A DNA stretch of 64,000 bases, from assembly GCF_003018255.1 (NCBI RefSeq), contig NZ_CP027440.1; one strand, 5' to 3'. The DNA comes from Escherichia coli (lineage in GTDB: Bacteria > Pseudomonadota > Gammaproteobacteria > Enterobacterales > Enterobacteriaceae). A model generated the notes under the pieces. The model saw only the letters and a list, made by a program, of their open reading frames with translations. It made no database searches and was not told the origin of the DNA. Of this stretch, positions 38,501 to 61,017 are shown in pieces. Within the stretch, counting starts at the first letter, position 1. Each line of letters opens with the position of its first letter. The position numbers and the translations under genes are program-made.

Positions 38501-39600
38501 CTGTGCTGGTAGCCGGTGGCGTTGAAGCTGAGAAGCTCGACAAACTGCCGCGCGATCGCTGGCTGGAGCTGGGCCTGACCGACGAAGAGAAACAAAATCA
38601 GCTGGAACAGCTGGCTGAGCAGTATGACGAACTGAAACACGAGTTCGAGAAGAAACTCGAAGCGAAACGCCGCAAAATCACCCAGGGCGACGATCTGGCA
38701 CCGGGCGTGCTGAAGATTGTTAAGGTATATCTGGCGGTTAAACGCCGTATCCAGCCTGGTGACAAGATGGCAGGTCGTCATGGTAACAAGGGTGTAATTT
38801 CTAAGATCAACCCGATCGAAGATATGCCTTACGATGAAAACGGTACGCCGGTAGACATCGTACTGAACCCGCTGGGCGTACCGTCTCGTATGAACATCGG
38901 TCAGATCCTCGAAACCCACCTGGGTATGGCTGCGAAAGGTATCGGCGACAAGATCAACGCCATGCTGAAACAGCAGCAAGAAGTCGCGAAACTGCGCGAA
39001 TTCATCCAGCGTGCGTACGATCTGGGCGCTGACGTTCGTCAGAAAGTTGACCTGAGTACCTTCAGCGATGAAGAAGTTATGCGTCTGGCTGAAAACCTGC
39101 GCAAAGGTATGCCAATCGCAACGCCGGTGTTCGACGGTGCGAAAGAAGCAGAAATTAAAGAGCTGCTGAAACTTGGCGACCTGCCGACTTCTGGTCAGAT
39201 CCGCCTGTACGACGGCCGCACTGGTGAACAGTTCGAGCGTCCGGTAACCGTTGGTTACATGTACATGCTGAAACTGAACCACCTGGTCGACGACAAGATG
39301 CACGCGCGTTCCACCGGTTCTTACAGCCTGGTTACTCAGCAGCCGCTGGGTGGTAAGGCACAGTTCGGTGGTCAGCGTTTCGGGGAGATGGAAGTGTGGG
39401 CGCTGGAAGCATACGGCGCAGCATACACCCTGCAGGAAATGCTCACCGTTAAGTCTGATGACGTGAACGGTCGTACTAAGATGTATAAAAACATCGTGGA
39501 CGGCAACCATCAGATGGAGCCGGGCATGCCAGAATCCTTCAACGTATTGTTGAAAGAGATTCGTTCGCTGGGTATCAACATCGAACTGGAAGACGAGTAA
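35572..39600 (+). CDS. rpoB: DNA-directed RNA polymerase beta subunit (1342 aa)
   Basis: ORF 35539..39600; canonical start [53 protein letters not shown]; ends ...IELEDE. Confidence 0.98.
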
Positions 39601-54667: not shown

Positions 54668-55087
54668 TTACCAGTGGTCCATACCCATATGACCGCCACC
54701 ACCGCAGCCGCCGTAACCCATTCCGGTACCGCGCGGAATACCCGCTTCAGCCATCGCAATATCTCGTTTCACCCGTAACTCATCTAACGACTGACGCAAA
54801 TTCTCCATCTCTTTGGCGACCGCGTTAATTTTGCTGCTATCCGGTGGGTTCGCGGCTAACAGGGCATTGTATTCATAACGCTTTGTTACCAGTTGCTGTT
54901 GCAGTGCGCTGCTTTGAGCGTAAAAGTCATTATGGATTTTCTGCCACGCTGTCTGTTGTTCGCTGGTCAAAGGCGCGGCATTTTGCTGCCACATACCGTG
55001 TCCGCCGTGAGCAAATGCCGATGTCGATCCCATCGCCATTGCTGAAAGCGCCATCATTACCAGGGCAATTTTCGTGTTCCGTTTCAT
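54668..55087 (-). CDS. zraP: Zinc resistance-associated periplasmic protein ZraP (139 aa)
   Basis: ORF 54668..55228; internal Met with RBS GGAGGA gives MKRNTKIALVMMALSAMAMGSTSAFAHGGHGMWQQNAAPLTSEQQTAWQKIH; Gly/His-rich C-terminus. Confidence 0.92.
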   Translation of the reverse strand: MKRNTKIALVMMALSAMAMGSTSAFAHGGHGMWQQNAAPLTSEQQTAWQKIHNDFYAQSSALQQQLVTKRYEYNALLAANPPDSSKINAVAKEMENLRQSLDELRVKRDIAMAEAGIPRGTGMGYGGCGGGGHMGMDHW

Positions 55088-55122
55088 GGTTAATCCTCCA
55101 GTGGTTGTCTTACTTCGGGTAT

Positions 55123-55138
55123 TGCATCTTCCGTGCCA
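55123..55138 (-). promoter_or_regulatory. sigma-54 (-24/-12) promoter of zraP
   Basis: Reverse strand reads TGGCACGGAAGATGCA (GG-N10-GC spacing) about 35 nt upstream of the zraP ATG. Confidence 0.7.
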
Positions 55139-55180
55139 ACGATGAAACGCTGATATGACGGGTAATCTGGCATGATAAAC

Positions 55181-55226
55181 GAGTAAAAATGACTCGCCTG
55201 CTGCGGGTAGCGAGTCATTTTTACTC
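55181..55226. promoter_or_regulatory. ZraR upstream activating sequence: perfect 17-bp inverted repeat
   Basis: GAGTAAAAATGACTCGC-N12-GCGAGTCATTTTTACTC lying between the divergent sigma-54 promoters of zraP and zraS. Confidence 0.7.
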
Positions 55227-55277
55227 ATTGAAACTTAAGCCTTTGTGTTACAGCGCAGGGTAAGCGCTGATAAAAGA

Positions 55278-55293
55278 TGGCATGATTTCTGCT
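55278..55293 (+). promoter_or_regulatory. sigma-54 (-24/-12) promoter of zraSR
   Basis: TGGCATGATTTCTGCT with GG and GC at consensus spacing, about 30 nt upstream of the zraS start. Confidence 0.65.
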
Positions 55294-55324
55294 GTCAGAA
55301 AGGGATGAGCAGGCAAAGAAGAAG

Positions 55325-56701
55325 ATGCGTTTTATGCAACGTTCTAAAGACTCCTTAGCTAAATGGTTAAGCGCGATCCTCCCCGTGGTCATTGTTGGGC
55401 TGGTGGGGCTGTTTGCGGTGACAGTGATTCGCGATTACGGGCGCGAGACTGCAGCCGCCAGACAAACGCTGCTGGAAAAAGGCAGTGTACTTATCCGTGC
55501 TCTCGAATCCGGCTCGCGCGTCGGCATGGGGATGCGCATGCATCATGCGCAGCAGCAGGCATTACTGGAAGAAATGGCCGGGCAGCCTGGTGTACGTTGG
55601 TTTGCGGTCACGGATGAACAAGGAACAATCGTGATGCATAGCAACTCCGGCATGGTGGGAAAACAGCTTTATTCCCCGCAGGAAATGCAGCAGTTACATC
55701 CGGGAGATGAAGAAGCGTGGCGGCGGATCGATAGCGCAGACGGCGAGCCTGTTCTGGAAATTTATCGCCAGTTTCAACCGATGTTTGCTGCTGGAATGCA
55801 CCGGATGCGCCATATGCAGCAGTATGCCGCGACACCACAAGCAATTTTTATCGCTTTCGACGCCAGTAACATTGTGAGTGCCGAAGATCGTGAGCAGAGA
55901 AACACCCTGATTATCCTCTTCGCCCTGGCGACGGTCTTGCTGGCAAGCGTGTTGTCATTCTTCTGGTATCGCCGATATCTGCGCTCGGGCCAGCTGTTGC
56001 AGGATGAAATGAAGCGCAAAGAGAAGCTGGTGGCACTGGGGCATCTTGCGGCAGGCGTTGCCCACGAAATCCGTAACCCACTTTCCTCGATTAAAGGGCT
56101 GGCGAAATACTTTGCCGAACGCGCGCCAGCAGGGGGAGAAGCGCATCAACTGGCGCAGGTGATGGCGAAAGAAGCCGACCGTTTAAACCGCGTGGTAAGC
56201 GAGTTGCTGGAACTGGTTAAGCCAACGCATCTGGCTTTGCAGGCGGTGGATCTCAACACGCTGATTAACCACTCATTACAGCTGGTAAGCCAGGATGCAA
56301 ACAGCCGGGAGATCCAGTTACGCTTTACCGCCAACGACACATTACCGGAAATTCAGGCCGATCCGGACAGGCTGACTCAGGTCCTGTTGAATCTCTATCT
56401 CAATGCTATTCAGGCGATTGGTCAGCATGGCGTGATTAGCGTGACGGCCAGCGAAAGCGGCACGGGTGTGAAAATCAGCGTTACCGACAGCGGTAAGGGA
56501 ATTGCGGCGGATCAGCTTGAAGCCATCTTCACCCCGTATTTCACCACGAAGGCCGAAGGCACCGGACTGGGGCTGGCGGTCGTGCATAATATTGTTGAAC
56601 AACACGGTGGTACAATTCAGGTCGCAAGCCAGGTGGGAAAAGGCGCAACGTTCACCCTCTGGCTTCCGGTCACTATTACGCGTAAGGACCCACAAGGATG
56701 A
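55325..56701 (+). CDS. zraS: Sensor histidine kinase ZraS (458 aa)
   Basis: MRFMQRSKDSLAKWLSAILPVVIVGLVGLFAVTVIRDYGRE; H-box LGHLAAGVAHEIRNPL; HATPase_c G-boxes (DSGKGI, GTGLGLAV). Confidence 0.94.
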   Translation: MRFMQRSKDSLAKWLSAILPVVIVGLVGLFAVTVIRDYGRETAAARQTLLEKGSVLIRALESGSRVGMGMRMHHAQQQALLEEMAGQPGVRWFAVTDEQGTIVMHSNSGMVGKQLYSPQEMQQLHPGDEEAWRRIDSADGEPVLEIYRQFQPMFAAGMHRMRHMQQYAATPQAIFIAFDASNIVSAEDREQRNTLIILFALATVLLASVLSFFWYRRYLRSGQLLQDEMKRKEKLVALGHLAAGVAHEIRNPLSSIKGLAKYFAERAPAGGEAHQLAQVMAKEADRLNRVVSELLELVKPTHLALQAVDLNTLINHSLQLVSQDANSREIQLRFTANDTLPEIQADPDRLTQVLLNLYLNAIQAIGQHGVISVTASESGTGVKISVTDSGKGIAADQLEAIFTPYFTTKAEGTGLGLAVVHNIVEQHGGTIQVASQVGKGATFTLWLPVTITRKDPQG

Positions 56702-58023
56702 CGCACGATAATATCGATATTCTGGTGGTGGATGATGACATTAGCCACTGCACTATTTTGCAGGCTTTGCTGCGCGGCTGGGGCTATAACGTCGCGCTGG
56801 CGAACAGCGGGCGACAGGCGCTGGAGCAGGTGCGGGAACAGGTTTTTGATCTTGTGCTTTGCGATGTGCGAATGGCGGAGATGGACGGCATTGCCACGCT
56901 AAAAGAGATCAAAGCGCTAAATCCGGCGATTCCGGTACTGATTATGACCGCATACTCCAGCGTCGAGACGGCGGTAGAGGCACTGAAAACCGGGGCGCTG
57001 GATTATCTCATCAAGCCGCTGGATTTCGATAACCTGCAGGCGACGCTGGAAAAGGCGCTCGCACATACGCACAGTGTTGACGCTGAAACGCCTGCGGTGT
57101 CTGCCAGCCAGTTCGGTATGGTAGGTAAAAGCCCGGCGATGCAACACCTGCTCAGTGAAATCGCCCTCGTCGCGCCATCGGAAGCCACAGTGCTGATCCA
57201 CGGCGATTCCGGCACCGGTAAAGAGCTGGTCGCAAGGGCGATTCACGCCAGTAGCGCACGGAGTGAAAAACCACTGGTAACGCTCAACTGTGCGGCACTC
57301 AACGAATCCTTGCTGGAATCTGAATTGTTCGGTCACGAAAAAGGGGCGTTTACCGGAGCCGATAAACGCCGGGAAGGGCGCTTTGTTGAGGCGGACGGCG
57401 GCACGCTGTTTCTCGATGAAATTGGCGATATCTCGCCGATGATGCAGGTTCGTCTGCTGCGTGCGATTCAGGAGCGCGAAGTTCAGCGTGTCGGCAGCAA
57501 CCAGACCATCTCGGTTGATGTCCGGCTGATTGCGGCGACTCATCGCGATCTTGCCGCAGAGGTGAATGCCGGGCGTTTTCGCCAGGATCTCTACTATCGC
57601 CTGAACGTGGTGGCGATTGAAGTTCCGTCGCTGCGTCAGCGGCGGGAAGATATTCCTCTGCTGGCAAACCATTTTCTTCAGCGCTTTGCCGAGCGTAATC
57701 GTAAGGCGGTAAAAGGTTTTACGCCCCAGGCGATGGATCTGCTGATTCACTACGACTGGCCGGGAAATATTCGTGAACTGGAAAACACGGTGGAACGGGC
57801 GGTGGTGCTGCTGACCGGGGAATATATTTCCGAACGCGAGCTGCCGCTGGCGATTGCGAGTACGCCGATCCCGCTGGTACAAAGTCAGGATATTCAGCCG
57901 CTGGTGGAAGTCGAAAAAGAGGTGATTCTGGCGGCGCTGGAGAAAACGGGCGGCAACAAAACCGAAGCCGCCCGCCAGTTAGGGATCACGCGCAAAACGC
58001 TATTGGCAAAACTGTCGCGTTAG
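56698..58023 (+). CDS. zraR: sigma-54-dependent response regulator ZraR (441 aa)
   Basis: Receiver domain (DILVVDDD...[10 protein letters not shown]), AAA+ sigma-54 interaction domain ([14 protein letters not shown]), C-terminal Fis-type HTH; overlaps zraS stop. Confidence 0.95.
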
Positions 58024-60910: not shown

Positions 60911-61017
60911 GGTAAATCCCCTGGATTTGACTATTACAGAGAGCGTTAGCTGAATTTTTCGCGAAAAACTCAGCTAACGCCCCTAACGGGGCATCCTTAT
61001 TTTTCGCCCGCATTGTA

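Follow-up and report, generated by a model that had tools for sequence, protein, structure and literature searches.

The intergenic region between the divergently transcribed zraP and zraSR genes of Escherichia coli contains a perfect 17-bp inverted repeat placed between two outward-facing promoters of the sigma-54 type, which raises the question of what the repeat does and whether its perfect symmetry is itself the feature that matters. The window analysed here (the whole stretch of DNA under study, 64,000 nucleotides of an E. coli chromosome) had been described in an earlier note made from the sequence alone, in which the region was read as an enhancer-binding-protein arrangement, the repeat as presumably the ZraR site, and the symmetry as striking. 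In the present analysis, the locus was annotated, its spacer was compared with K-12 and with other genera, and published binding and expression data were mapped onto it.

The zra locus and its identity to K-12

The gene order in the window is yjaG-hupA-yjaH-zraP<>zraS-zraR-purD-purH, and the order from yjaG to purD is common to the window and K-12. The features of the zra region are collected in Table 1. ZraR, ZraS and ZraP all pass the NCBIfam equivalog cut-offs (ZraP, for instance, scores 278 bits, the cut-off being 200), and the zraP product is a periplasmic chaperone of the Metal_resist/CpxP-like kind which acts as a repressor of ZraSR. The Pfam domains of ZraR comprise a REC (Response_reg) domain, a Sigma54_activat AAA+ domain, in which the GAFTGA motif was read in the translation, and a Fis-type HTH_8 domain. 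A cognate activator with both the sigma-54-interaction AAA+ module and a DNA-binding helix-turn-helix is therefore encoded at the zra locus itself. The nearest solved structure to this protein is 1OJL, Salmonella ZraR, a hexamer.

The zraP-zraS spacer is identical in 237 of 237 positions to that of K-12 MG1655 (NC_000913.3 4201689-4201925; a window position equals the K-12 coordinate minus 4,146,601), and published K-12 experiments can therefore be transferred directly to the window sequence. In comparison with the K-12 zraP-zraSR (hydHG) region, the locus, the gene order and every base of the spacer are the same, and the differences are confined to the flanking coding sequences, namely the length of ZraP and the allele class of the ZraS periplasmic domain. 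The locus is thus the already-characterised zraP-zraSR control region, ordinary in kind, and one shared ZraR element between two outward-facing sigma-54 promoters is already known.

Table 1. Coordinates of the features of the zraP-zraSR control region in the window.
Feature	Position	Strand	Length	Remarks
zraP CDS	54668..55087	-	139 aa + stop	ORF/translation; Pfam PF13801; NCBIfam ZraP equivalog
zraP-zraS intergenic spacer	55088-55324		237 bp	
zraP -24/-12 element TGGCACGGAAGATGCA	55138->55123	-		Predicted TSS ~55112; K-12 OS38 motif
Left arm of inverted repeat GAGTAAAAATGACTCGC	55181-55197		17 bp	
Inter-arm nucleotides	55198-55209		12 nt	
Right arm of inverted repeat GCGAGTCATTTTTACTC	55210-55226		17 bp	
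ZraR site 1 (left) GAGTAAAAATGACTC	55181..55195		15 bp	Reverse complement of GRGT-CATTTTT-ACYC unit; centre 55188
Spacer between the 15-bp sites	55196..55211		16 bp	Length fixed, sequence free
ZraR site 2 (right) GAGTCATTTTTACTC	55212..55226		15 bp	Centre 55219
zraSR -24/-12 element TGGCATGATTTCTGCT	55278-55293	+		Predicted TSS ~55304; K-12 OS39 motif
zraS, sensor histidine kinase	55325..56701	+	458 aa	K-12: 465 aa; NCBIfam ZraS equivalog, 882 bits
zraR, NtrC-family bacterial enhancer-binding protein	56698..58023	+	441 aa	ZraR equivalog, 994 bits

Two divergent sigma-54 promoters

The -24/-12 elements which the earlier note had placed on each strand around the repeat were both recovered, with TGGCACGGAAGATGCA facing zraP and TGGCATGATTTCTGCT facing zraS. 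In each of them, GG and GC lie 10 bp apart within TGGCAC-N5-TTGCW and point toward the downstream gene. Sigma-54 ChIP-seq in K-12 (Bonocora et al. 2015, PMC4591121) reported two intergenic peaks here, OS38 with the motif TTGGCACGGAAGATGCA for zraP (FAT 39) and OS39 with the motif ATGGCATGATTTCTGCT for zraS (FAT 9), and the predicted transcription start sites lie 25 nt and 21 nt upstream of the start codons, respectively. The counterpart motifs of Salmonella were bound by sigma-54 in ChIP-chip (PMC3844500), and the Salmonella locus aligned in this study carries the same -24/-12 motifs as those reported to be bound. Moreover, a promiscuous enhancer-binding protein induced zraP 16-fold and hydHG 3.7-fold in Salmonella, as determined by microarray (PMC3844500).

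The pattern TGGCAY-N6-TGCW has three matches in the 64 kb, against 0.8 expected. The third match, TGGCACCGGGCGTGCT (38696-38711), was rejected as a promoter and is most likely due to chance, because it lies inside rpoB, in sense orientation, and is absent from the published sigma-54 ChIP-seq tables. In addition, nine nucleotides of the zraS -24 element recur exactly, in direct orientation, 110 bp further upstream (TGGCATGAT, 55168-55176). This copy was also discarded as a candidate third promoter of the sigma-54 type, given that it lacks the GC at -12 and is not conserved in E. albertii or in other genera, and it is probably no promoter. The zraP sigma-54 promoter is also enclosed by a further inverted repeat of 12 nt (55080-55091 / 55138-55149; arms 92% complementary and separated by 46 nt), which lacks conservation in Citrobacter and was set aside as a functional candidate, probably having arisen by chance. 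Basal expression of zraS in LB is independent of ZraR (log2 fold change -0.02; PMC7657598), and a simple scan for a sigma-70-like promoter that could explain this basal expression found none.

The inverted repeat and its conservation across genera

The repeat itself was confirmed as the earlier note had given it, with arms that are complementary in 17 of 17 positions and 12 nucleotides between them, and the complementarity extends to 20 nt at 95%. No other short-range inverted repeat in the whole window ranks as high. When the 237-bp spacer was shuffled 2000 times with its dinucleotides preserved, perfect repeats reached 11 bp at most, so a perfect 17-bp repeat is far beyond chance. Elsewhere in the window, at 60943-60980, there is a 38-bp near-perfect palindrome (GCGTTAGCTGAATTTTTCG/CGAAAAACTCAGCTAACGC; 19-nt arms, 95% complementary, no loop), which sits 33-70 bp upstream of the purH start codon (60910, minus strand).

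The spacer was aligned over 16 genomes, comprising seven of Escherichia (the window included), six of Citrobacter and one each of Salmonella, Kosakonia and Pluralibacter. A contig scan based on ZraP gave Escherichia and Citrobacter loci only, and the loci of Salmonella, Kosakonia, Pluralibacter, C. rodentium and C. freundii were obtained via protein search and contig look-ups. Only four conserved noncoding blocks were found among the 16 genomes, namely the two -24/-12 elements and two 15-bp sites. Both promoter elements are retained in all 16 genomes across the five genera, and for zraP the -24 and -12 dinucleotides are kept in every one of them, with scattered changes only between and around these dinucleotides.

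When the 32 copies of the 15-bp sites are oriented alike, they read G-R-G-T-C-A-T-T-T-T-T-A-C-Y-C, with 13 of 15 positions invariant except in a single site that is changed at position 6; the variable positions are 2 (A/G) and 14 (T/C), and the GT-N7-AC core is invariant in 32 of 32. Dyad sites with such a GT-N7-AC core are typical of HTH_8 activators. Site 1 is invariant at 14 of its 15 positions in all 16 genomes, and site 2 varies across genera only at positions 2 (A/G) and 14 (T/C), and at position 6 in one genome. The non-palindromic centre CATTTTT is unchanged in 31 of the 32 sites, and the two sites are always mirror-oriented with the A/T tract outside. Within the 64-kb window, GAGT-N7-ACTC occurs twice, both times in this element.

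The spacing between the conserved blocks is constrained as well. The distance from site to site, start-to-start or centre-to-centre, is 31 bp in all 16 genomes, and the 16 bp between the sites never change in length and vary freely in sequence. Site 2 is followed by the zraS -24 element after 50-51 bp in all 16 genomes. The stretch from the zraP -24 element to site 1 (55139-55180 in the window) measures 42 bp in Escherichia (41 in E. albertii) and 53 bp in Citrobacter, Salmonella, Kosakonia and Pluralibacter; the 11-bp difference corresponds to one helical turn and, therefore, the phasing is kept. In the window, the centre of site 1 lies at about -76 from the zraP start site and about -116 from that of zraS, and the centre of site 2 at about -107 and -85, respectively. 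The two sites thus lie on one helical face, with phasing preserved, and fall within the range of about 70-150 bp upstream of a promoter that marks enhancers of the NtrC/NorR type. These observations refine the description of the element, in that the functional units would be the two 15-bp dyad sites with centres 31 bp apart, rather than the 17-bp arms.

The symmetry that the earlier note had called striking exceeds anything seen in the shuffles, but 17/17 complementarity is not conserved beyond some Escherichia. It was found in only three Escherichia sequences of the 16 genomes, the arms matching elsewhere in 13-16 of 17 positions. As the symmetry is limited in this way, it is incidental and not itself the selected feature; the complementarity of the arms results from two near-identical sites set head-to-head.

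The same comparison bears on the proposal that the repeat acts as a nucleic-acid structure (a DNA cruciform, an RNA hairpin or a bidirectional terminator) instead of a protein site. The 17-bp stem does fold as single-stranded DNA at -17.7 kcal/mol with a z-score of -6, as such a structure would be expected to do. However, the element is situated upstream of either predicted start site and would hence be absent from both zra transcripts, and the flanking genes diverge from the region, so that nothing there needs termination. The element has no T-run (and hence no U-tract), a terminator scan returned no terminator-like site in it, and a search of Rfam gave no match other than a sub-threshold plant miRNA hairpin (E=0.2). 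Pairing is not maintained across genera either, since among the changed arm-to-arm pairs only one is compensated (L14/R2, in Kosakonia), and it is the unpaired centre of each 15-mer that stays invariant. On these grounds, the hairpin, cruciform or terminator reading was rejected, and the chance that it is right is negligible.

Within E. coli, the element, taken as 56 bp, is unchanged in 4356 of 5419 genomes, and the variants examined, including the most divergent spacer (93% identity), carry changes only in the spacer between the sites. In addition, the interval from ZraR site 2 to the zraS -24 element holds a box TTTGTGT...CAGGGT (55243-55262), which is conserved in Escherichia and Citrobacter and partly beyond. 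Its TTTGTGT part is unchanged throughout the first 11 sequences of Escherichia and Citrobacter and slightly altered in C. rodentium and C. freundii, and the other genera keep part of it (CAGGGTTA). The box could be a candidate bend or a site for an accessory factor.

Occupancy of the element by ZraR

The assignment of the element to ZraR can be examined directly with published data. In ZraR ChIP-exo (Choudhary et al. 2020, PMC7657598, Data Set S2), the strongest peak (peak_9, S/N 73) covers NC_000913.3 4201786-4201818. Mapped onto the identical sequence of the window, it spans 55185-55217 (AAAAATGACTCGCCTGCTGCGGGTAGCGAGTCA), lies wholly within the repeat with its centre 2.5 bp from the dyad, and places ZraR on the element. 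Genomic SELEX with purified ZraR recovered the spacer in 81 of 86 clones and identified it as the one high-affinity target of ZraR (PMC8249747). Furthermore, under zinc, the deletion of zraR reduced expression by about 12.7 log2 units for zraP and about 3.2 for zraS (PMC7657598). The presumption that this is the ZraR site of an enhancer-binding-protein arrangement, for which a comparison with published ZraR footprints had been proposed as a check, is thereby upheld, the spacer being identical to that of K-12. At the level of single bases, the protection by ZraR here rests on the 33-bp ChIP-exo peak together with conservation.

Each of the two sites can be read as a dyad in itself, CGAGT-N7-ACTCG at 55180-55196 and CGAGT-N7-ACTCA at 55211-55227, with 14 bp between them. 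This parse fits what Leonhartsberger et al. (2001, J Mol Biol 307:93) reportedly state in their abstract, that HydG recognises 'two inverted repeats separated by a 14 bp spacer'. A review gives the ZraR enhancer sequence as 'not known' (PMC4987338), and text searches of the literature yielded no usable quotation that describes the ZraR site.

The element might alternatively be the operator of another regulator, either a repressor or Fis, with ZraR binding elsewhere in the spacer. The core layout of Fis sites is 15 bp with G and C at the two ends and an A/T-rich centre, and the 15-bp sites appear to resemble it. A second ZraR ChIP-exo peak (peak_8, S/N 34, K-12 4201673-4201698; PMC7657598) could also be taken to favour binding elsewhere. 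It maps to 55072-55097 in the window, over the zraP ribosome-binding site and start codon and downstream of the sigma-54 promoter, and no GT-N7-AC motif is present within this interval. This peak may possibly reflect cross-linking through an enhancer-promoter loop, and is otherwise unaccounted for by the model. Against another operator, it is the strongest ZraR peak that falls on the element, the purified protein selects the spacer, and no other block of the spacer, the two promoters aside, combines dyad symmetry with conservation across genera. Fis or IHF may also occupy the element, but this would be in addition to ZraR and not in its place. Given the ChIP-exo and SELEX results, a regulator other than ZraR at the element is unlikely, and the full alternative, in which ZraR would act from elsewhere in the spacer, is very improbable.

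A shared enhancer and its relation to known systems

Published data obtained on the identical sequence place ZraR on the element and the sigma-54 holoenzyme on both promoters, and they make both transcription units dependent on ZraR under zinc. The element is, with near certainty, the upstream activating sequence (enhancer) which the divergent sigma-54 promoters of zraP and zraSR share. Phosphorylated ZraR dimers would bind the two 15-bp dyad sites through the C-terminal Fis-type helix-turn-helix (binding is published, and the dimeric state is presumed). With centres 31 bp apart, or about three helical turns, the two mirror-image sites lie on the same face of the DNA. By analogy with the family and with structure 1OJL, the bound dimers may nucleate an AAA+ ring, which would loop to the closed E-sigma54 complexes about 76-116 bp to either side and open them by ATP hydrolysis. 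The stoichiometry of the oligomer on the sites, the looping and any role of IHF or of intrinsic bending are likewise those expected from the family. Since enhancers act in either orientation, one element could serve both promoters, driving zraP, which encodes a chaperone and repressor, and, in an autoregulatory manner, zraSR. The shared element would consequently couple ZraP expression to the positive autoregulation of ZraSR.

Among well-known enhancers, that of NtrC at glnAp2 resembles the zra element. It consists of two dyad sites for dimers, separated by about three helical turns and located some 100-140 bp upstream of a sigma-54 promoter, from which an AAA+ oligomer is nucleated that works through looping. 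Against the NtrC model, ZraR reaches 462 bits, and the zra element shares with the glnAp2 enhancer the paired dyad sites, their separation of about three turns and their location upstream of a sigma-54 promoter. The two differ in the recognition sequence, which is of the TGCACC type for NtrC and GRGT-N7-ACYC for ZraR, and in the number of promoters served, one by the NtrC enhancer and two, facing opposite ways, by the zra element.

NorR is another HTH_8 enhancer-binding protein with GT-N7-AC sites in a divergent region (PMC2831303). The E. coli norR-norVW system has in common with ZraR an HTH_8 activator, a GT-N7-AC dyad core, several sites and an adjacent regulator gene (PMC2831303, PMC8249747). 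In contrast, NorR uses three sites together with IHF and senses NO via a GAF domain, whereas ZraR is a phosphorylated response regulator with two sites that have a CATTTTT centre. Moreover, both divergent promoters are of the sigma-54 type in the zra region, unlike in norR-norVW.

A more specific reading holds that the 46-bp element is one composite, shape-dependent enhancer and not two ordinary palindromes. The DNA-binding domain of ZraR is related to Fis, and the geometry of the A-tracts, read out through the minor groove or an intrinsic bend as in Fis, may be essential for assembly of the ZraR ring or for looping that is free of IHF. Co-occupancy of the Fis-like 15-mers by Fis itself is a related possibility. 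No statement of a shape-dependent enhancer was found in the literature searched, and the composite reading is put forward tentatively, as a rather doubtful extension of the shared ZraR enhancer described above.

The ZraP tail and the ZraS sensor alleles

The flanking proteins differ from those of K-12 more than the spacer does. The earlier note had remarked that ZraP is 139 aa here, with a tail shorter than in the 141-aa K-12 protein, and this holds: one Gly-Met unit is missing, and the Gly/His/Met tail (54668-54740, the 3' end of zraP) also carries A121T and G139D relative to K-12. Among 30 rows taken at even intervals from the E. coli genomes, zraP aligns with that of the window without an indel in about 12 and has an additional 6 nt in about 16. 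The 139-aa and 141-aa alleles are both common in E. coli, and the 139-aa form is no oddity.

In the adjacent sensor kinase, the periplasmic sensor domain of ZraS (55440-55900, residues ~39-192) is deeply dimorphic in E. coli. A segment of the window type, at no less than 95% nucleotide identity, is present in 4183 of 5419 E. coli genomes, and the remaining 1236 of 5419, K-12 included, match at 60-80% over half the segment. K-12 therefore carries the minority type of the ZraS sensor. Over about 156 residues, 63% of the amino acids are identical between the two types, which also differ by a 7-aa indel. By contrast, hardly any difference between them is seen in the transmembrane and cytoplasmic regions of ZraS, in ZraR or in the promoter region. 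The K-12-type domain is closest to those of E. whittamii (93%) and E. albertii (83%), which suggests either an old polymorphism or an import between species.

Implications

As a textbook ZraPSR control region, the locus carries little weight for discovery. What the analysis adds is a consensus for ZraR across genera, GRGT-CATTTTT-ACYC, occurring twice with centres 31 bp apart, the demonstration that the symmetry is incidental, and, for this genome, a clean annotation of the enhancer and its two promoters. That the symmetry is not the selected feature is useful to engineers of PzraP zinc and lead biosensors. For the biology of E. coli, the dimorphism of the ZraS sensor is more likely to matter than the enhancer finding.
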